From contig QZJG01000060.1 in assembly GCA_003599275.1 (NCBI GenBank), positions 24,854 through 88,853 on the forward strand: DNA of 64,000 nucleotides. Direction: 5' to 3'. Positions 48,517 to 59,236 of the stretch are shown piece by piece. Within the stretch, counting starts at the first letter, position 1; every line of letters begins with the position of its first letter. A program made the position numbers and the translations under genes. Source of the stretch: Nitrospiraceae bacterium. Its GTDB lineage: Bacteria > Nitrospirota > Thermodesulfovibrionia > UBA6902. The notes under the pieces were generated by a model. The model was given only the letters and a program-made list of their open reading frames with translations. It was not told the DNA's origin and made no database searches.

Positions 48517-50427
48517 ATGAAAGCAGTCATACAAAATTCCGTCAGGCATAATCTGATACGCATTGTCGCAATTGCTGCAGGCGCTGCTTTGCTCATTCTG
48601 GTCCTTTCCGAAAGCATATACAACTTCCTGAGTTATCGTAATACAATGGCCGATAATCTCCTGACCCAGGCAAAGATCATGGGCTTAAACAGCACTGCCG
48701 CCATACTCTTTGAAGACCGGATGGACGCCGAAGAAACGCTTTCGGCGCTCGATGCAGTACCCGGTGTAGTCTATGCGGCGATCTACACAGCAAACGGTAA
48801 AACATTTGCGACATACCAAAAGAAGCGCTCTGAAGGCGTCCCTGTCCAACCGTCGCCTCAAGCGGAGGGCCACTTTTTTGAAGTCAATTATTTATCGGTG
48901 ATCCAGCCCATTATTGTCAAAAATGAGAGCATCGGCCGGATATATATACGCTCTATTCTGAAAGAGTTATATATGGATATGGCAATGCATGTGCTTATTA
49001 TAGTTGCAATCGGAATTGTGTCCCTGTCGATAGGAATACTGCTTCTGACAAGGCTGCATAAAATCATCACCGGTCCCCTCCTGCATCTGGTAAGTGTAAT
49101 GAAGACCGTTTCAGAAGGGAAAGATTATTCTCTCCGTGCCCGGGTGCAGGGACCTTCGGAGATGCGATACCTGTCTGAAGGATTCAACGAGATGCTTGGT
49201 CAAATCAGGGAAAGGGATTCAGAGCTTGAGTGGAACCGCCGCCATCTCGAAGAAACCGTCCGTATCCGGACACTGGAGCTGACGGAGACAAACGAAGAGC
49301 TGGGGAAAGAAGTTGCCCTGCGCCGGGAGACCAATGAGCTGCTGGAAAATATTTTTTCCAACGTACACGTCCTGCTCGCGTATATGGACACGGACTTCAA
49401 CTTAATCAGGGTGAACAACAGGTATGCCGAGGCCGACGGCCGTGGGCCGGAATTTTTCATCGGCAAAAACCATTTTGCCCTGTATCCGAATGAGGAGAAT
49501 GAGGCTATTTTCCGGAAGGTGGTCGAGACCGGCGAAACTTTTTTTGTAAGGGCAAAACCCTTCAGGTATGCGGAGCATCCCGAGCGCGGCACGACCTTCT
49601 GGGACTGGAGTCTGAGGCCTGTTAAGGATGAATATGGCAAAGTCACCGGACTGGTGCTCAGCCTTATCGACGTGACGCAGAATATAATGCTTTATGCGGA
49701 GCTTATGCGTGCCGACCACCTGGCGTCCATCGGAAAGCTTGCTGCGGGCGTGGCGCATGAGATCAACAACCCGATAAACGGCGTCATAAATTATGCGCAG
49801 ATATTGCTGAACAGGAGCGATACAGAGAGTAAGGAGCACGAGATCGCAGGCCGGATCATAAAGGAGAGCGACCGCATAGCGGGCATCGTCAGGAACCTCC
49901 TTTCCTTTGCCTGCGATAAGAAGGAGGAAAAGCGGCCCACGGACCTCAGGGCCGTATTGGCGGATTCACTTGCGCTTACGGAAACACAACTGATAAATGA
50001 CGGGACGAGACTGAATGTGCATATGCCCGATGATCTGCCGGAGGTCGTTGCCAATCACCAGCAGATACAGCAGGTATTTCTCAACGTCATCTCCAATGCG
50101 AGTTACGCCCTCAACCTGAAATACCCACCGGCGCATGAGGAAAAGGTGCTTGAGATAACGGGCACGAGGACGGAGCTTGAGGACAAACCATATGTGCGGA
50201 TGATATTTCATGACCACGGCACCGGCATTCCCGCCGGTATATTAGTCAGGATAATGGACCCCTTCTTTACGACCAAATACGGAGATAAAGGCTCAGGCCT
50301 GGGACTGAGCATATGCCACGGTATAATAAGCGACCACGGCGGAAGGATAAGGGTGGAGAGTACGGAAGGAGAGTATACGAAGGTCATTATCGACCTTCCG
50401 GCCCTCTTAGGGGAAGGAATATGCTGA
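48517..50427 (+). CDS. Membrane sensor histidine kinase (periplasmic sensor-HAMP-PAS-HisKA-HATPase)
   Basis: N-terminal AAILFED..AEETL.AL sensor typical of genes after yfiR; HAMP; C-terminal module duplicated from 44545-45621. Confidence 0.9.
   Translation: MKAVIQNSVRHNLIRIVAIAAGAALLILVLSESIYNFLSYRNTMADNLLTQAKIMGLNSTAAILFEDRMDAEETLSALDAVPGVVYAAIYTANGKTFATYQKKRSEGVPVQPSPQAEGHFFEVNYLSVIQPIIVKNESIGRIYIRSILKELYMDMAMHVLIIVAIGIVSLSIGILLLTRLHKIITGPLLHLVSVMKTVSEGKDYSLRARVQGPSEMRYLSEGFNEMLGQIRERDSELEWNRRHLEETVRIRTLELTETNEELGKEVALRRETNELLENIFSNVHVLLAYMDTDFNLIRVNNRYAEADGRGPEFFIGKNHFALYPNEENEAIFRKVVETGETFFVRAKPFRYAEHPERGTTFWDWSLRPVKDEYGKVTGLVLSLIDVTQNIMLYAELMRADHLASIGKLAAGVAHEINNPINGVINYAQILLNRSDTESKEHEIAGRIIKESDRIAGIVRNLLSFACDKKEEKRPTDLRAVLADSLALTETQLINDGTRLNVHMPDDLPEVVANHQQIQQVFLNVISNASYALNLKYPPAHEEKVLEITGTRTELEDKPYVRMIFHDHGTGIPAGILVRIMDPFFTTKYGDKGSGLGLSICHGIISDHGGRIRVESTEGEYTKVIIDLPALLGEGIC
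49331..50407 (+). repeat. Direct repeat copy 2 (~1.08 kb PAS-HisKA-HATPase module)
   Basis: Same length and ends as copy 1; high identity by eye (not computed). Confidence 0.9.
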
Positions 50428-51961
50428 ACGTAGTCCCCTGCCCCGGGCCGCTGTCTGCAAGCAGATAACCTTTGTGCTCCTTGATGATCCCAAATACGAT
50501 GGATAATCCGAGCCCTGTCCCTAATCCGGCCTTTTTTGTAGTAAAGAACGGGTCGAACATCTTGTCTTTTGTGTCCTGGTCCATGCCGGTCCCGGTGTCG
50601 GTGATGCTGATTTCCGCGTAATCGGCGGCAGCCGGTCTTTCATTACTCTCAACTCTTAACTCATGACTCCGGATTTTTCTTGTCCGTATGGTCAAGGTCC
50701 CGCCATCCGGCATTGCGTCCCTTGCATTTGTTGCAAGGTTCATCAGGACCTGCTCTATTTGTCCGGGGTCTGCCGTCACAATTAAATCCTCTCCCGCGGT
50801 CTCGACTGTAAATTCCATGTCTTCTTTCAGGAGCCTCCGCAATATCTCTTCCATATTGCGGATGAGGTCGTTGAGGTTTACGGCCTCGGGAAAGCTCATC
50901 CGTTTTCTTGTGTATGTGAGAAGGCCCTTTGTGAGGGCTTCTCCCTTGTCCGCAACAGACAATATCTGTCGCACGCAGTGTCCCGCAAATTCCTCGTCAT
51001 TATTTTTTTTCTGCAGGAGCTCTGCATAACCTATTATCGCGCCAAGTATGTTGTTGAAGTCGTGGGCAATGCCTCCCGCGAAGATGCCCATCGCCTCCAC
51101 TTTCCGGGTGTGCCTGAGCTGTTCTTCAATTATCTGTTTTTCCTCCTCCCTCTTTTTCAGGGATTCGGCCATGCCGTTAAATGCCTGCGCGAGCCTGCCT
51201 ATTTCATCGTCTCTTCCAGCGTATATCTTTTTGACCGAAGACCCGGCCCCCAGCGCCTTTACCTCCCCGGTCAGCCTTTTCAGCGGCCTTGTGGCCCCTT
51301 TTACCATGAAATAAGTGATGAGCCACGCGGGTATTATGAAGAACCCGAGCACTGTGAGGCTTTTGAACAATAGCTCTCTCAGATTCCTGTTCAGTATTTC
51401 CGTGGTGAGTACGGTCCGCACAAACCCTGTTACAATTTCTTTCTGAGGCGTTGGTCCCCTGTTTAAAAGCAGGTCCTCTTCGCCGGCATTATTCACGCGG
51501 GAAGTCACGGGAGCCCAGAATTCTATCCAGCCCTCTGTTTCTGAATAAAATGCCGGGCCGGACGCGCTGAGCATGTCCATCGTCTCCTTACTCATGTGCC
51601 GCAGGCCCACGGGACGCTTTTTACTGGCCGAGATCGCGGGGCTTTCTTCCGTCTTCAATTCCCTGCCGTCAACTGTAAATACCTGGACCAGTATCACTTC
51701 GTCATTTTGCAGGATCCCTCCGACGGGATATTTGAGCAGATCTTCGTTTTCCGCAAAGACGCCGAGCCTCGAATTATAGGCAAGCAGCCCCGACAGTTGT
51801 TCTCCTTCATCTATAAGGTGCTGTCTTAACAGTTGCCCCTGATTGTAGACCAGGAGTGCGGTGAAAGAGATATGGATGACTACGATGAGGCAGGTGAACA
51901 GGAGAAATATCTTTGCGCCGAAGCTTTCGCGGATGTATTTTATGAGTTTTAAATATGGCAT
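50387..51961 (-). CDS. Membrane sensor histidine kinase (HAMP-HisKA-HATPase)
   Basis: Two TMs, HAMP, AGGIAHDFNNIL, DTGTGM, FDPFFTTK..G.GTGLGL. Confidence 0.9.
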   Translation of the reverse strand: MPYLKLIKYIRESFGAKIFLLFTCLIVVIHISFTALLVYNQGQLLRQHLIDEGEQLSGLLAYNSRLGVFAENEDLLKYPVGGILQNDEVILVQVFTVDGRELKTEESPAISASKKRPVGLRHMSKETMDMLSASGPAFYSETEGWIEFWAPVTSRVNNAGEEDLLLNRGPTPQKEIVTGFVRTVLTTEILNRNLRELLFKSLTVLGFFIIPAWLITYFMVKGATRPLKRLTGEVKALGAGSSVKKIYAGRDDEIGRLAQAFNGMAESLKKREEEKQIIEEQLRHTRKVEAMGIFAGGIAHDFNNILGAIIGYAELLQKKNNDEEFAGHCVRQILSVADKGEALTKGLLTYTRKRMSFPEAVNLNDLIRNMEEILRRLLKEDMEFTVETAGEDLIVTADPGQIEQVLMNLATNARDAMPDGGTLTIRTRKIRSHELRVESNERPAAADYAEISITDTGTGMDQDTKDKMFDPFFTTKKAGLGTGLGLSIVFGIIKEHKGYLLADSGPGQGTTFSIFLPLRGPEGR

Positions 51962-53080: not shown

Positions 53081-55066
53081 ATGGATGTGAAAAGGACCTG
53101 CCGCGCTGATTCAGTCTGTTCCCGTCTTCTGAAATTCTTTTTTTTGTTATCTGTGATAACTCTGCCCGCCGTTGTCTTTGCCCAGTCTGAAGAGGAGAGC
53201 AGGATGCTTCAGATGTACTTCAAAGAAGATGAACTTGTCGAAGCTCCCACAAGGACCCCGAAGCCGCTCTCGAAGGTCGCCGAAAATATCAGTATAATCA
53301 CCTCGGAGGAGATAGAGGCGATGAACGCGCATACCGTCACTGAGATACTGGAAAGGGTGACAGGCTTGTTTGTCGAATTCTTCGGGCATGACTTTGGAAG
53401 CGGTTCAAATCTTTATATCGAGGGGTCCAATGAAACTCACGTCCTTGTGCTGGTGGACGGGACCCCGTGGAATTTCCTCAGCGGAGGGAATGCTGCGGTC
53501 AATTCGGTCCCTGTAAGGACAATCAAGCGCATCGAGGTCATAAAAGGCCCTGCTTCATCGGCATGGGGATCATCATTGGGAGGCGTGATAAATATAGTGA
53601 CAAAGGACACCGGGGACGATACGGTCCCGTCAGGCTCGCTGGGCGCATCCATAGGGGAAAGAGATACACATGATTACACTGCTGAAGTCACGGGCAGAGC
53701 GGGAATTGCCGGATACTATTTATACGCAGGCAGGCAGGGCTCGAACGGCTTGAGAGACGAGAGGTTTTTTGAAAACGACAGTTTTTACGGAAAGATCGAT
53801 GTCCCCTTTTCCTCAGATATAAAGCTCCTGCTGACTTCCGGATATAGCGGGCCTCGTTTAAATACCGGTGATCTCATAAGCTCTGATTTGACGTCAATCG
53901 ATATCACCCGCGCATTTTTTACGACAGCGTCTGTTGCTGCCGGTATCACCGATGAGCTCAGGTTCGAGGCGTCCGTTTACAGGTTTGAACAGAAATTTGT
54001 GCAGGACAATGTCGTCCTCGGAACAGGGCTATTGGACCCTGCCGAATCTGCCGGAGACAGGTTTTCAAAAATTATATACGATGAAAAGACCGATGGTGGA
54101 AGCGCAAAGCTGGTCTGGACCGATGCCGTTCACACTGCCGTCATCGGCGCAGATGTCAGCCACGGCAAGCTGGACCAGACCATCAGGGCCGGGACTGTCC
54201 TGCAGTCCATGGGTGTGCCGGAGGTGGACAGAACGCATCCCGGCATCAGTAAATGGGCGGTCTTCTTTAATGACACAATGTCATTCGGAGATTTTTCAGT
54301 TACCCCCGGCATCAGGTACGATGAAAACAATGTCAGCGGAGAGTTTACGAGCCCGAGCCTCGGGGCCACATATAAAGCCGGCAAACGCACGGTACTCAGG
54401 GCCTCTGTTGCAAAGGGCTTTACCTCGCCGCCCCTTTCTTTTACTTCGGGAGGCGGGGTGTTTCTTGACCCTAATCCAAATTTAAAACCGGAGAAGGTCT
54501 GGTCTTATCAGGCCGGGGCCGAGTCACAGGTGACGGATTTTTTACGCGCAAGGGTCACAGTCTTTCATCACGACATGAAGAATGCGCAGGTGAAAGTATT
54601 ATACGCTGCGGGCGCCCCTACATATAACGACCTGTACTTTAATCTGGGTGAGATTAAACGGAACGGCGTGGAACTCGATGCGGAGACAGCTCAATTTTAT
54701 AACGTGTCCATGAAGGCTGGGTTTGCGTATGTCCGCAAAGAATCTTATCTTGAAACTGACACCTCCGAAGAAAGTACGATATATAACTATATGTATAATC
54801 TTTCTGCAAGATACGATGACAGGAAAACCTTTTCAGCGCAGCTTGACGGACACTATGTTTGGTGGGACTATAGCTCCTCATACATGGCAAAATATGATAC
54901 GTTTATCTGGGACCTAAACCTCAGGAAGAAAATTTATTCCGGAGGCAGTATGAATACGGACATATTCATGACAGCCCATAATCTCTTCAACGGCTCCCAT
55001 TATACACTCGGTGAGAGGCAGAACCCGCGCAGATGGATCGAGGCGGGATTGAGTTTGAAGTTTTAA
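53081..55066 (+). CDS. TonB-dependent receptor (plug + barrel)
   Basis: Signal peptide, ENISIIT.EEIEAMNAHT, VLVLVDG, RIEVIKGPASSAWGSSLGGVINI, C-terminal LKF. Confidence 0.9.
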   Translation: MDVKRTCRADSVCSRLLKFFFLLSVITLPAVVFAQSEEESRMLQMYFKEDELVEAPTRTPKPLSKVAENISIITSEEIEAMNAHTVTEILERVTGLFVEFFGHDFGSGSNLYIEGSNETHVLVLVDGTPWNFLSGGNAAVNSVPVRTIKRIEVIKGPASSAWGSSLGGVINIVTKDTGDDTVPSGSLGASIGERDTHDYTAEVTGRAGIAGYYLYAGRQGSNGLRDERFFENDSFYGKIDVPFSSDIKLLLTSGYSGPRLNTGDLISSDLTSIDITRAFFTTASVAAGITDELRFEASVYRFEQKFVQDNVVLGTGLLDPAESAGDRFSKIIYDEKTDGGSAKLVWTDAVHTAVIGADVSHGKLDQTIRAGTVLQSMGVPEVDRTHPGISKWAVFFNDTMSFGDFSVTPGIRYDENNVSGEFTSPSLGATYKAGKRTVLRASVAKGFTSPPLSFTSGGGVFLDPNPNLKPEKVWSYQAGAESQVTDFLRARVTVFHHDMKNAQVKVLYAAGAPTYNDLYFNLGEIKRNGVELDAETAQFYNVSMKAGFAYVRKESYLETDTSEESTIYNYMYNLSARYDDRKTFSAQLDGHYVWWDYSSSYMAKYDTFIWDLNLRKKIYSGGSMNTDIFMTAHNLFNGSHYTLGERQNPRRWIEAGLSLKF

Positions 55067-55078
55067 CCGTCTGTTTTC

Positions 55079-55681
55079 TTGTTAAGGTCAAATATGACTC
55101 CGACGAGCAGAAAAAATCTCCGGACCTTTGCTGCTGCCAATTCGATCTGGGCAATCGTTGGAGGTATTATGGGGCCCTTTTACATCCTGCAGGTAAACAA
55201 CCTTAGCGATGGGATGGAAAAGATGGGCTTTGCATTCAGCATAATGATACTCTTCAGGTCTGCGTCCTCATATGTCACGGGCCGGGTATCGGACAGGTGC
55301 GGACGAAAGGTTTTTCTGTTCCTTGCGGCTTATATCCAGGCGATTGTCATTTTCCTGTATACCGTTATTACAACAACCTCTCACCTGTTTATCCTCCAGG
55401 CGCTGATGGGTGTGACCGATGGGTCTCTTACTACCATTAAAACCTGTCTTCTGGGCGATATTACCAGGAAAGAAAAACGGGGGACCGTTGTCGGCGGGTT
55501 TGATGCAGTTGTCAGTTTGTCGTCCGCAATAGGGTTGGCACTGGGGGGGTATATTGTGAAATTTTACGGATTGAAATCGGTCTTTTACATAACATCGGTA
55601 GTCATTGTGCTCTCAACGGCAGTATTGTTTTTTATTAAAGAAGACGCTGAGGCAGCAGTTCCCCCTGAAAAAACTTCTTGA
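55079..55681 (+). CDS. Half-size (about 6 TM) MFS transporter
   Basis: MFS motif A-like GRVSDRCGRK, six hydrophobic segments, 200 aa. Confidence 0.7.
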   Translation: MLRSNMTPTSRKNLRTFAAANSIWAIVGGIMGPFYILQVNNLSDGMEKMGFAFSIMILFRSASSYVTGRVSDRCGRKVFLFLAAYIQAIVIFLYTVITTTSHLFILQALMGVTDGSLTTIKTCLLGDITRKEKRGTVVGGFDAVVSLSSAIGLALGGYIVKFYGLKSVFYITSVVIVLSTAVLFFIKEDAEAAVPPEKTS

Positions 55682-55706
55682 CATCCAATTACTACCTTAT
55701 TAATAT
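55678..55706 (+). promoter_or_regulatory. Putative sigma70 promoter of the precursor peptide (TTGACA-N17-TAATAT)
   Basis: Perfect -35 overlapping the MFS stop codon, 17-nt spacer. Confidence 0.55.
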
Positions 55707-55756
55707 AAGTAACCTGCCTTAGCAGGGGATCGGTATTTCCATAAAAGGAGGGAGCC

Positions 55757-55858
55757 ATGGAAAGAGAAGAGATCATAATTCTGGATGAAGGTATTGACTT
55801 GCGGGAGGTAGGGCCTGACGGCCCGTGTTGTTCTACTACAACCGCACCTATAAGATAG
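55757..55858 (+). CDS. RiPP precursor peptide, geopeptide-like (MEREEIIILDEGIDLREVGPDGPCCSTTTAPIR)
   Basis: Not in the ORF track. Strong RBS AGGAGGGAG; acidic leader I-I-L-D-E-G-I; CC core; directly upstream of a radical SAM/SPASM gene. Confidence 0.85.
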   Translation: MEREEIIILDEGIDLREVGPDGPCCSTTTAPIR

Positions 55859-55862
55859 TACG

Positions 55863-55894
55863 AAAGTGGGAGGGAGGAAGCTCTCTCCCACTTT
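55863..55894 (+). terminator. 14-bp hairpin (AAAGTGGGAGGGAG-GAAG-CTCTCTCCCACTTT) between precursor and maturase
   Basis: Read directly; one G-U pair, short U tract. Confidence 0.65.
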
Positions 55895-55915
55895 TAGCAG
55901 GTTTCTCCAAAAAAG

Positions 55916-57229
55916 ATGAAACTCTCCCGATACCTTAAAATCTACCCCTTCGACGAAAGACCCGGCTATCTCCTGCTTTACTCCACAAAAAAGTCATCAA
56001 AGATACTTCTCAGGGAGGAGACTTACGATTCAATAATCAACGGCACGCTGTCTCCTGAAAACGAGGCAACACTGTCGAGACTCGGGATGATCGTTTCAGA
56101 CCTTGAACTCGAAAGAAGGGAAGTCCTCGGCCTGATCGATGAGATCAATGCAAAGAATGCCAGGCTGAACCTGAGCGTTATCATGAACCTCGACTGCAAC
56201 TTCAACTGCGTGTACTGTTACGAAGGCGGCATGAAGGGCAAGTTCTATATGACCGATGAGACGGCGGGGCTCCTTCTTGATTTTGTTAAGGACCGGTTCA
56301 CTCCCGGCAAGAAAACCATACATATGGATTTTTACGGCGGAGAGCCGTTGCTGAGCGCAAACCTCATCAAATCCATCTCGATGGAGATGAAGTCTTTTGC
56401 AGAAAGCAGAGGCGCAAGATACACTTTCACTCTTGTTACCAACGGCTCTCTTTTAAAAAGGCGCATCGCGGAAGAGCTGACCTCGCTGGGACTTAAGGGA
56501 GTAAAGATGACCCTTGACGGCCCGCCTGAAATTCACAACTCCTGCCGTCCCTTTAAATCAGGCGCGGGCAGCTTTGACGCCATTGTCGAAAACATTAAAG
56601 AGACACATGATCTCCTGAAAATCGGCATAGGCGGCAATTACCGCAAAGATAACTTTGAAAAATTTCCGCTGCTGTTCGATTATCTCGAAAGGGAAGGGCT
56701 CACTCCCGGCAGGATACACGAATTGAAATTCGAGCCTGTAATGAACAGGCCCGTGGATGAAAACTCGCCTGATTATATGGACGGCCTCATGTCCGTAAAT
56801 GAGCCGTGGGTGATAAGCGCAGGCGCGTTTTTGAGGGGAGAAGTTTTGCGAAGGGGCTACGGTACTCCGAAGATCAACCCCTCGCCCTGTCAGGTTGAGA
56901 TTAATGACTCTTATGTAGTGAATTTCGACGGCGTCATCTATAAGTGTCCTGTCTTTATCGGAAAGAAGGGTTTTGAGACAGGAGACCTCCGGAACGGCGT
57001 TACGGATTACAGCGATTCGCACAGGCCCGGCATTTACAAAAATGATGAATGCGCTGAATGCGGGTATCTGCCGCTCTGCTTCGGCGGCTGCCGTTATATG
57101 TCGTATGTCAGAAACGGGAATGTAGAGAGCGTTGACTGCAAGAGACCTTACTTCGACGCCGTCCTTGAGACGATGATAAAACAGGACATAAAGTTTCTCT
57201 CCTCCCGGTCAACCAAATCCAGCGATTAA
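55916..57229 (+). CDS. Radical SAM/SPASM peptide maturase (geopeptide-maturase-like)
   Basis: MKLSRYLKIYP...GYLLLYST N-terminal extension (possible RRE), CNFNCVYC, FYGGEPLL, SPASM cysteines PC...YKC...CAECGYLPLCFGGC...DC. Confidence 0.9.
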   Translation: MKLSRYLKIYPFDERPGYLLLYSTKKSSKILLREETYDSIINGTLSPENEATLSRLGMIVSDLELERREVLGLIDEINAKNARLNLSVIMNLDCNFNCVYCYEGGMKGKFYMTDETAGLLLDFVKDRFTPGKKTIHMDFYGGEPLLSANLIKSISMEMKSFAESRGARYTFTLVTNGSLLKRRIAEELTSLGLKGVKMTLDGPPEIHNSCRPFKSGAGSFDAIVENIKETHDLLKIGIGGNYRKDNFEKFPLLFDYLEREGLTPGRIHELKFEPVMNRPVDENSPDYMDGLMSVNEPWVISAGAFLRGEVLRRGYGTPKINPSPCQVEINDSYVVNFDGVIYKCPVFIGKKGFETGDLRNGVTDYSDSHRPGIYKNDECAECGYLPLCFGGCRYMSYVRNGNVESVDCKRPYFDAVLETMIKQDIKFLSSRSTKSSD

Positions 57230-57347: not shown

Positions 57348-57375
57348 TTGATTTAATACGACAGTTACTTATAAT
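57348..57375 (+). promoter_or_regulatory. Putative sigma70 promoter (TTGATT-N16-TATAAT)
   Basis: Perfect -10; 26 nt upstream of ATG 57402. Confidence 0.5.
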
Positions 57376-57401
57376 AAACGTATTGATCTTTCTTGCTGCA
57401 T

Positions 57402-57977
57402 ATGGAAAAAATCCTCATCATTGACGACGACAGTGAGATGCAGTCAGTCCTTTCGGACATCCTGAAATCGGAAGGATACGAACCTCTCGTTTCAGGCGAC
57501 GGAAGGAAGGCCCTCAGGTATATCACGGACCTTTCCCCTGCCCTTGTTCTGCTGGATATAAGACTTCCCGGCATGGACGGTATGAAGGTGTTAGAGAAAA
57601 TCAGGCAGACGGACAAGAGACTTATCGTAATCATGCTCACCGGATACGGGGACATCAAGGACGCGGTCCAGGCGATAAAGATGGGCGCGTTCGACTATAT
57701 CACAAAGCCCTTCAGGAACCAGGAGATAGTATCGACCGTAAGAGACGCCCTTCTGGCCCGGCTCAGTTGTGACGCCCACGCGGTTACGCCACGGGAGAAA
57801 GAGGTGCTTGCATGGCTCAAGGAGGGGAAAAGCTCACGGGACATTTCTTTGATCCTTGGTATCAGCGACAGGACAGTAAATTTTCATATCAATAATGTCA
57901 TGCATAAACTTAACGCGGTAAGCAGGATGCATGCTGTAGCCATAGCGGTCGAAAAGGCAATAATAGATACGAGATAA
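57402..57977 (+). CDS. Response regulator, REC + LuxR-type HTH
   Basis: IIDDD, LLDIRLPGMDG, GAFDYITKPF; TPREKEVLAWLKEGKSS.DIS.ILGISDRTVNFH. Confidence 0.9.
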   Translation: MEKILIIDDDSEMQSVLSDILKSEGYEPLVSGDGRKALRYITDLSPALVLLDIRLPGMDGMKVLEKIRQTDKRLIVIMLTGYGDIKDAVQAIKMGAFDYITKPFRNQEIVSTVRDALLARLSCDAHAVTPREKEVLAWLKEGKSSRDISLILGISDRTVNFHINNVMHKLNAVSRMHAVAIAVEKAIIDTR

Positions 57978-57985
57978 AACAGGGG

Positions 57986-59236
57986 TCAAACAAGCAGGAC
58001 CTGAAGCACCTGATCGATCCTCTTCAAATTTCCCAGGACCTTTTCGCAAGCATCGCGCCCGACTTTGTGCGCCCTCGTCAGGGCAACAAATCCTGCAAGT
58101 CTGCTTTCGATTTCATCAACGGCCCCTTTTACATCGAGATCGTCGTTCATTTTCCGCTCAAATGCATTTGTAAGCTTATCGGGCGTCGCGGTTGTATCTG
58201 CTCCGCCTTTGGTCTTCCGGCAATTGCGGATCTCCTGCGTCATACTTCTGATCGAATCGATCCGTCCGGCGGCTTCCCTCAACCTGTCTCCGGTAAGGTC
58301 CAGTTTTTTCCTGTAGTGCTCCCGGACAAGGAAAAAGCGGACATGTTCAGCGCTAAACCCCTGCTTCAAAAGCTCCTGGAGATAGACTATATTGCCCTTG
58401 CTTTTGGACATCTTCGCGCCGTTGACGATCACATGCTCGCCGTGGAGCCAGTAGTGGGCAAACTCCCTTCCAAGGAGCGAGTCCATAATCGCCAGGGTAT
58501 AGTCATGGTGCCGGTAAAGATTGTCCACGCCCCCGCAGCAGATATCGATTTCGCAGCCGAGGTGTTTGGTGATCATGGCCGCGTCCTGGATGTTCCATGC
58601 TGGCCTGCCCCGACCAATGGCCGTGTCCCATGAAAAGCCTTCATTTCCCCTGCTCTTATCGTCGTGCCACAGAATGAAATCTCCCAGGTTCCAGCGCATG
58701 CCGGTGTAGGTGTCTCTCCGAAAGCGTCTTTTCTCTTTGGGCCAGCGGCCCATATCGAGGCCGAAGAGCCTGCCGAAGCCCTTGAATTTCAGGGGATCAA
58801 AGAATACATCGCCTTTATGCCTGTAAGCGTAACCCTTCTCTATCAGGCGTTCGATGAGATGGACCGCCTGGTCTACGCTTGTGGAAGATCTGGCGATATG
58901 CGGCGGAAGTTTTATTTTTAATGCTGCGGCATCAGTCATAAATTGTTCGGCATTGGGGGTGATAAGTTTTTCACGGGTCAGATTCTTTTCCCGTGCTTTG
59001 ACGATGGCCTTGTCCTCGACGTCGGTAAAATTGATAAGGCGCTGGACGTTGTATCCCAGATATTCCAGGTAACGCTGCAGGACGTCTTCGTAAAGGAAAG
59101 AACGGTAGTTTCCCACGTGGGGTCTTGCATAGATGGAAGGGCCGCATGTAAACATCTTTACCTCTTTGTCCCTGCGCGGCTTAAAGAGCTCTTTTTTTCC
59201 GGTAAGAGTGTTATAAAGATAAAGACTGTTTCTCAA
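57986..59236 (-). CDS. Cysteinyl-tRNA synthetase-like protein with altered active site and no anticodon-binding domain
   Basis: YNTLT..KE.F, CGPSIY, PHVGN, TDVEDK, DFILW and KMSKSKGN are present. GRPGWHIECSAM is replaced by GRPAWNIQDAAM and PHHENE by RHHDYT. The protein ends after the DALR helices (416 aa). Confidence 0.8.
   Translation of the reverse strand: MRNSLYLYNTLTGKKELFKPRRDKEVKMFTCGPSIYARPHVGNYRSFLYEDVLQRYLEYLGYNVQRLINFTDVEDKAIVKAREKNLTREKLITPNAEQFMTDAAALKIKLPPHIARSSTSVDQAVHLIERLIEKGYAYRHKGDVFFDPLKFKGFGRLFGLDMGRWPKEKRRFRRDTYTGMRWNLGDFILWHDDKSRGNEGFSWDTAIGRGRPAWNIQDAAMITKHLGCEIDICCGGVDNLYRHHDYTLAIMDSLLGREFAHYWLHGEHVIVNGAKMSKSKGNIVYLQELLKQGFSAEHVRFFLVREHYRKKLDLTGDRLREAAGRIDSIRSMTQEIRNCRKTKGGADTTATPDKLTNAFERKMNDDLDVKGAVDEIESRLAGFVALTRAHKVGRDACEKVLGNLKRIDQVLQVLLV

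Follow-up and report, generated by a model that had tools for sequence, protein, structure and literature searches.

A probable unannotated geopeptide-type precursor gene upstream of a radical S-adenosylmethionine maturase in an uncultured Nitrospiraceae bacterium

The geopeptide system, in which a short precursor peptide (TIGR04229) is encoded together with a radical S-adenosylmethionine (SAM)/SPASM maturase (TIGR04280), was defined by comparative genomics in Geobacter, and a literature search found no experimental study of either of its branches, the Geobacteraceae one or the one considered here (Nitrospirota, Desulfobacterota). Among other ribosomally synthesised and post-translationally modified peptides (RiPPs), read-through terminators follow lantibiotic and sactipeptide structural genes, and methanobactin operons encode a precursor, modifying enzymes, the TonB-dependent receptor MbnT, the periplasmic binding protein MbnE, an exporter and regulators. 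We analysed a stretch of 64,000 nucleotides (hereafter the window) of contig QZJG01000060.1, from a 3.05-Mb metagenome-assembled genome (MAG) of an uncultured Nitrospiraceae bacterium, for which an earlier reading of the DNA (the original prediction) had proposed an unannotated RiPP precursor gene with its own promoter and an attenuating hairpin before a maturase gene. We propose that the peptide encoded at 55757–55858 is the unannotated precursor of a geopeptide-type RiPP, which is the best explanation overall when expression, chemistry and role are considered together, with a probability of about 0.8.

The precursor open reading frame (ORF; 55757–55858, forward strand) encodes 33 amino acid residues followed by a stop codon (MEREEIIILDEGIDLREVGPDGPCCSTTTAPIR). 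The leader corresponds approximately to residues 1–23 (55757–55825) and contains a conserved IIILDEG block (55772–55792), while the core, CCSTTTAPIR, is encoded at 55826–55855, with Cys24 and Cys25 at 55826–55831. The TTGACA-N17-TAATAT promoter-like site, the strong ribosome-binding site and the peptide quoted in the original prediction were all found where it had placed them. The gene can also be considered unannotated, as had been claimed, since the exact peptide is absent from approximately 15 billion predicted proteins, searched for exact matches, among which the adjacent maturase is present.

Homologues were investigated in two sets of TIGR04280 maturase loci, one from 61 genomes (the window's own and 60 relatives) and the other from a wider scan of 185,579 species genomes, which gave 547 loci, the best 80 of which were compared. 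Upstream DNA was sufficient in 14 of the relatives' loci and in 75 of the best 80. A homologous small ORF was present upstream of the maturase in 14/14 of the relatives' loci; in the wider set, a profile built from 13 peptides identified a same-strand ORF directly upstream of the maturase in 74/75 loci, and the remaining one, from a Geobacteraceae MAG, also holds the peptide (75/75). All 89 comparison loci with sufficient upstream DNA, distributed over several phyla, carry a peptide homologue. A lack of similar small ORFs upstream of homologous maturases had been named as grounds for abandoning the original prediction; these counts decisively establish the opposite, and the identification of the ORF as the precursor stands.

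A coding signature was observed in nine close relatives, in which the leader and Cys-Cys codons differ at 275 third positions versus 116 and 67 at the others, with 173 synonymous and 152 non-synonymous codon differences. The ORF is preceded by the Shine-Dalgarno (SD) sequence AAGGAGG (55745–55751), 5 nt before the ATG, and a match of at least 6 nt to the anti-SD complement was found in 50/71 precursor genes. A broader profile, A4, retrieved the window ORF with 55 bits (E 2.7e-14), as the sole copy in its genome, and matched 242 clusters of called peptides in a set of 1.84 billion representatives. We consider it virtually certain that this ORF is a real protein-coding gene. When ten homologous peptides were looked up, five were uncalled, three were named "hypothetical", "unknown" or "uncharacterized" protein and two were nameless. 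The peptide gene family is, in this respect, an annotation gap, with half of the homologues looked up being uncalled, and with a wider profile, for example A4, several hundred precursors would gain an annotation (547 maturase loci, 242 called clusters). A 5-bp G+C hairpin inside the ORF (GGGCC-TGAC-GGCCC, 55811–55824), over the GPDGP codons, was flagged as terminator-like by a scan and probably results incidentally from the two Gly-Pro codon pairs there.

The adjacent maturase (55916–57229, forward strand, 437 amino acid residues) scores 567.3 bits against TIGR04280 (E 2.1e-170, positions 1–427 of 428), for which the curated cut-off is 400 bits, and is the only gene of this family in the window's genome. 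Besides this maturase, the window contains the features that mark a geopeptide pair, namely an (I/L/V)-rich L-D-x-G leader, a Cys-Cys near the C-terminus and a position directly upstream of the maturase, here with a gap of 57 nt. Taken by maturase and peptide design, the window pair very probably belongs to the geopeptide system. The nearest loci are those of Nitrospirota/Thermodesulfovibrionia, and a maturase above the cut-off was found in 17/61 genomes, the window's own included, and in 3/10 of the other genomes of the same genus (G001–G010). The cassette is patchy among same-genus and related genomes, which suggests that it is an accessory module, possibly horizontally moved.

We compared 76 distinct peptides, anchored at the Cys-Cys, and observed that this pair is invariant in all of them (76/76). 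The leader block, (E/K)-I-I/V-V/I-L-D-x-G-I/V, is located 8–15 residues, mostly 10–12, before the Cys-Cys, and in alignment A4 Gly12 is invariant and Ile6 and Leu9 are at least 90% conserved. The tail has 8–10 residues in 70/76 peptides and is usually x-G(44)-A/S/P-F/L/Y-x-P(49)/A(19)-hydrophobic-R(52), the numbers being counts out of 76. The window tail, STTTAPIR, retains only Pro, Ile and Arg of this pattern, at positions +7, +8 and +9, and similar tails were observed in a few close relatives (CCNTTSAPVR, CCSGSQAPVR). The serine/threonine richness, from which, together with the Cys-Cys, the original prediction had proposed thioether crosslinks, is therefore limited to the window genome and these few relatives, and since it is not a conserved trait, serine or threonine cannot be the family's conserved crosslink acceptor; across the family only the Cys-Cys is invariant, Gly+3, Pro+7 and Arg+9 are common and the other positions vary.

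Other arrangements of the precursor gene were also noticed. A Desulfobacterota-type locus (L053, 4888–5616) contains four tandem precursors with near-identical leaders and CCAGPYFAFRG tails, the first copy continuing by read-through into an additional, degenerate copy, and its receptor gene is split in three ORFs. In a class-level relative (L025, reverse-complement 574–792), an unrelated 95-residue ORF is inserted between precursor and maturase, and the precursor is approximately 700 nt upstream. A representative of 581 residues with eight matched stretches (P0069) was considered as a multi-core precursor and rejected, being a repetitive unrelated sequence.

The maturase has the cysteine residues expected of its class. 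The CX3CX2C motif of radical SAM enzymes (C94, C98 and C101) is invariant in 39 sequences, with PF04055 detected at E 8.8e-15, and so are the seven cysteine residues of the SPASM motif (C325, C344, C379, C382, C388, C392 and C408), including CX2CX5CX3C, for two auxiliary [4Fe-4S] clusters. In the AlphaFold model, with an overall predicted local distance difference test (pLDDT) score of 87.9, the N-terminus is formed by three strands (residues 7–11, 18–23 and 28–33) and three helices (34–42, 47–55 and 63–80), with pLDDT above 90, and resembles a RiPP recognition element (RRE). As modelled, this would be a PqqD-like RRE domain, the predicted leader binder. The original prediction had proposed that the leader is recognised through IILDEGI, and in fact no part of the leader is more conserved than IILDEG and the maturase model has such an RRE-like N-terminal domain.

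After TIGR04280, the best-scoring families for the maturase are CefB, TIGR04463, Clo7bot, PapB and SCIFF, all of thioether-type peptide maturases. CteB is the best PDB match both by sequence (E 6.5e-35) and by fold (Foldseek E 7e-20), with 450 columns aligned to a 421-residue chain, near the full length of both proteins; it is followed, by sequence and fold, by anSME, TigE and SuiB. The mechanism that homology would best support is leader docking on the RRE combined with a cysteine thioether, and the chances that thioether formation is the chemistry of this maturase seem evenly balanced. In such a mechanism, the IIILDEG β-strand of the leader would dock on the RRE-like N-terminal domain, and the maturase, equipped with a radical SAM cluster and a pair of auxiliary SPASM clusters, would abstract a hydrogen from a tail residue, the resulting carbon being then bonded to the sulfur of Cys24 and/or Cys25. 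A Cα, sactionine-like link would be favoured over one needing a particular side chain, because the tail is hypervariable and a side-chain-independent link fits this better.

The promoter-like site, sigma-70-like, is composed of TTGACA (55678–55683), a 17-nt spacer and TAATAT (55701–55706), on the forward strand, and has 10/12 matches, with a predicted transcript start near 55712–55713. Its -35 element overlaps the TGA stop codon of a gene encoding a half-size major facilitator superfamily (MFS) transporter, since this gene sits here between the receptor and the peptide genes. A site of this quality appears in the 86 nt before the ORF in 1.8% of shuffles (p ~0.018), and approximately 11 comparable sites exist on the forward strand of the whole window. 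Promoter-like sites were seen in 18 homologous loci, and in 10 of these the -10 element ends 46–55 nt before the ATG. We consider it moderately likely, from these sequence features, that the promoter is functional, in which case it would fire approximately 45 nt upstream of the precursor ATG.

A stem-loop absent from the original prediction, CCTGC-CTTA-GCAGG (55713–55726, forward strand), was identified in the 5' untranslated region (UTR), starting approximately 7 nt after the -10 element, where the transcript is predicted to begin. Hairpins were accepted as similarly placed when they had at least five pairs, at least three of them G-C, a loop of 3–5 nt and the inner 3' base 27–41 nt before the ATG; these were found in 30/75 loci versus 1.8 expected in a position-restricted shuffle test, which was used because a MAFFT alignment of the 5' UTRs left the hairpins out of register. 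The stems vary (CCTGY/RCAGG, CCCGG/CCGGG, CCTCC/GGAGG), and because their sequences differ an RNA structure is favoured over a protein-binding site. These hairpins are mostly confined to Nitrospirota-type loci, and the one in the window probably forms the 5' end of the precursor mRNA, with a putative stabilising role.

The second, terminator-like hairpin (55862–55899, forward strand) starts directly after the precursor gene. The original prediction had described a 14-bp hairpin before the maturase; the hairpin is indeed there, at 55862–55895, and its stem (55862–55876/55881–55895, loop GAAG) has 15 pairs, 13 Watson-Crick and two G-U. Its predicted energy is -26.3 kcal/mol, with z = -4.45 relative to dinucleotide-preserving shuffles, none of which (0/200) folds as well. 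An 11-bp core stem with seven G-C pairs is followed by TTTT (55892–55895), which forms the last bases of the 3' arm, and by AGCA (55896–55899). The hairpin is followed by TTTTAGCA and the maturase ATG (55916) lies 20 nt past the full stem and 24 nt past the G+C-rich core. The precursor-hairpin-enzyme layout that had been proposed is conserved across loci and terminator-like: the peptide-maturase spacers of 66 loci fold with a median z of -3.85, 83% being below -2, and a hairpin with at least five G-C pairs was identified in 56/69 loci, of which 41 have at least four T among the 8 nt that follow, 26 of them at least six. Across loci, the maturase ATG follows the end of the stem at a median distance of 25 nt.

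Such a distance is too short for a promoter, so that the maturase would be transcribed only by read-through and the hairpin would, by this logic, be an attenuator, a function that we regard as likely from its position and structure. The window maturase has no SD sequence, and none was found at 52/71 maturase starts; with transcription only by read-through, this would give a high substrate-to-enzyme ratio. The transcript would start with the short G+C-rich stem-loop and carry the strong SD sequence, most transcripts would end at the leaky intrinsic terminator that follows the stop codon by 4 nt, and the maturase would come only from read-through, leading to far more peptide than enzyme.

The genes around the pair were compared in 81 loci, those of the window and of 80 others, whose common order, in simplified form, is a kinase and a binding protein on the opposite strand, followed by the receptor, peptide and maturase genes and by a half-MFS or a regulator gene. 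In the window, the conserved first gene of the cassette encodes a TonB-dependent outer-membrane receptor with Plug and β-barrel domains (53081–55066, forward strand), divergent from a gene for a periplasmic binding protein of PF04392 (51965–52963, reverse strand), which is paired with a HAMP histidine kinase (50387–51961, reverse strand). A receptor cluster is present in 74/81 loci, mostly directly upstream of the precursor, and the binding protein and a two-component protein, kinase or regulator, are present in 57/81 each, mostly in the same divergent arrangement. Downstream of the maturase, the window has a REC + LuxR/FixJ-type response regulator (57393–57977, forward strand), and a regulator of this type occupies the same position in the nearest Nitrospirota loci.

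The half-MFS transporter (55079–55681, forward strand) has 200 residues and six transmembrane helices and matches MFS_1 at positions 11–183 of 347. Its orthologues, of approximately 188 residues and also with six transmembrane helices, are present in ~24/81 loci, usually just downstream of the maturase, and the placement in the window between receptor and precursor is unusual. The possibility of a truncated pseudogene was rejected, given that a real family of ~188 residues accompanies the cassettes, and the half-MFS is a candidate exporter. In the 163-nt gap after the maturase, a promoter-like TTGATT-16-TATAAT site (57348–57375, 10/12 matches) was observed 18 nt before the regulator gene that starts at 57393. 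Beyond this gene lies a paralogue similar to cysteinyl-tRNA synthetase (57986–59236, reverse strand; tRNA-synt_1e, 416 residues, below the cysS cut-off), whose link to the cassette was rejected, as it is present in 0 of the other 80 loci.

With such neighbours, the product may be secreted, taken up again and sensed, as either a signal or a metal carrier (metallophore). It would be exported, perhaps via the half-MFS, return through the TonB-dependent receptor of the same cassette and encounter, in the periplasm, the binding protein and the kinase, a pair that would signal to the LuxR-type regulator. RiPP genes are not usually in such constant company of an outer-membrane importer and a periplasmic sensor, and this conserved context merits experimental work.

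Several observations weigh against the reading of the window peptide as a geopeptide-type precursor with this expression, chemistry and role. The peptide scores 11.2 bits against TIGR04229 (E 0.26, positions 3–22 of 22), below the curated cut-off of 30 bits of this 22-position model, and was not recovered when the window's own genome was searched with TIGR04229. Ten homologues of the same branch, from Nitrospirota and Desulfobacterota, reach 0–17 bits, with 31–43 bits for Geobacteraceae peptides; the window peptide is, as its branch, below the cut-off and therefore a relative outside the scope of TIGR04229, and not a member of the model in its present form. Judging from these scores, the curated model is narrow, as it misses every member tried outside Geobacteraceae. 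Regarding expression, promoter-like sites were found in 18/75 homologous loci versus 13 expected, an enrichment that is not significant, and the closest relatives have the same interval with only weak -35 elements, for which reason read-through from the receptor gene is conceivable. As the count enrichment fails, the promoter is supported only by the clustering of site positions and by the site in the window itself. After the hairpin core, the U-tract is limited to four T, and a rule of at least five did not call a terminator. Regarding chemistry and role, no conserved acceptor residue was found in the peptide tails across the family, and no protease or dedicated exporter is common to all loci, the half-MFS being present in only ~30%.

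These observations leave room for other explanations. The small ORF might be a chance frame or a non-coding regulatory leader, with the true substrate of the maturase encoded elsewhere, as the failure of gene finders to call it and its score below the TIGR04229 cut-off would allow; but its conservation at the peptide level in every comparison locus and in several phyla, the third-position substitution bias and the strong SD sequence contradict this, there is no second copy in the genome, no Rfam family reaches threshold around the ORF, and we reject this explanation as extremely improbable. A less drastic alternative accepts the gene and denies it a promoter of its own: TTGACA-17-TAATAT would be fortuitous, transcription would proceed from the promoter of the receptor/half-MFS operon, and the 5' hairpin would be an RNase processing or stabilising site, giving rise to an abundant small mRNA bounded by two hairpins. 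The genes from the receptor to the regulator are, in fact, all co-oriented with short gaps, and the promoter-like sites hardly exceed expectation in the family and are weak in the closest relatives. A 10/12 site within an 86-nt interval, with p ~0.02, argues against it, as do, in loci with a recognisable promoter, its constant distance from the ATG and a hairpin that starts 7–16 nt after the -10 element, and we consider a precursor gene lacking its own promoter rather unlikely.

A further alternative concerns the product. The maturase might make no thioether rings and instead remodel the Cys-Cys or another residue, by Cβ oxidation as in anaerobic sulfatase maturases, epimerisation or a C–C link, such that the sulfur would stay free for metal and the TonB-dependent receptor would retrieve a metal-loaded, thiol-based metallophore. 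The composition of the cassette (receptor in 74/81 loci, binding protein and two-component protein in 57 each, half-MFS in ~24) is in line with this idea, and so are a core in which only the Cys-Cys is invariant and no acceptor is conserved, the rank of anSME as second-best structural and sequence relative, and the hosts, which record titles describe as anaerobes of sulfidic or metal-rich habitats. On the other hand, the nearest relatives, among named families as among solved structures, form thioethers (CteB, PapB, SCIFF maturases), and hypervariable tails are found more typically in signals that must match a receptor than in metal ligands. The binding protein has no ATP-binding cassette (ABC) permease or ATPase beside it, so that there is no sign of metal delivery to the cytoplasm, and the metallophore explanation as a whole appears improbable. 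We retain the geopeptide-type RiPP precursor, with leader-guided modification of the Cys-Cys, as the preferred reading.

Speculatively, an invariant Cys-Cys and a hypervariable tail of 8–10 residues, encoded nearly always beside a dedicated TonB-dependent receptor and usually beside an orphan binding protein linked to a histidine kinase, could represent a class of extracellular RiPPs of two-membrane bacteria, either a "TonB-gated" autoinducer or a thiol metallophore. If so, the tail of an autoinducer would set the specificity between peptide and receptor, a metallophore would serve anaerobes in sulfidic habitats, and in both versions the promoter, the 5' hairpin and the leaky terminator would together serve to amplify the output of the circuit. 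The family also offers design rules for heterologous reconstitution, namely the leader block, the invariant Cys-Cys, the tail length and the expression logic of peptide over enzyme.

Compared with methanobactin operons, the cassette has the same kinds of components: a cysteine-containing precursor, a modifying enzyme, a TonB-dependent receptor, a binding protein, an efflux-type transporter and a regulator. However, its enzyme is a radical SAM/SPASM protein and not MbnBC, its binding protein belongs to PF04392 and is paired with a histidine kinase and not with a transport system, no homology was seen between the precursors, and metal binding by the window product is hypothetical. The layout of precursor, terminator and enzyme is itself ordinary for RiPP operons, with a strong SD sequence, a hairpin right after the stop codon and an enzyme reachable by read-through only; the window differs in having an extra conserved hairpin at the predicted 5' end and in an operon headed by a TonB-dependent receptor gene.

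With CteB/thermocellin, the other SCIFF/ranthipeptide maturases (PapB, Tte1186) and the sactipeptide synthases, the window maturase shares the combination of RRE, radical SAM and full SPASM domains, and with the CteB/SCIFF group the pair shares a short cysteine-bearing C-terminal core behind a leader. The identity to the window maturase is only ~20%, however, SCIFF peptides have six cysteine residues and the window peptide two adjacent ones, and its family is without a conserved aspartate, threonine or asparagine acceptor; the window maturase is far below the cut-offs of those families (129–169 bits versus 340–600), and the crosslink is here predicted from homology. The geopeptide system is the closest. 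The window maturase is above the curated cut-off, the peptide gene is directly upstream, and the peptide has the same design, with an acidic N-terminus, (I/L/V)3-L-D-E-G, approximately 10–13 residues, the Cys-Cys and a tail of 8–13 residues. The canonical Geobacteraceae members share this design and have tails quite unlike those of the window's branch, whose own consensus, x-G-A-F-x-P-hydrophobic-R, is absent from Geobacter. The pair very probably belongs to the catalogued TIGR04280/TIGR04229 system, which the original prediction had not recognised, and constitutes a new member of it rather than a new system.

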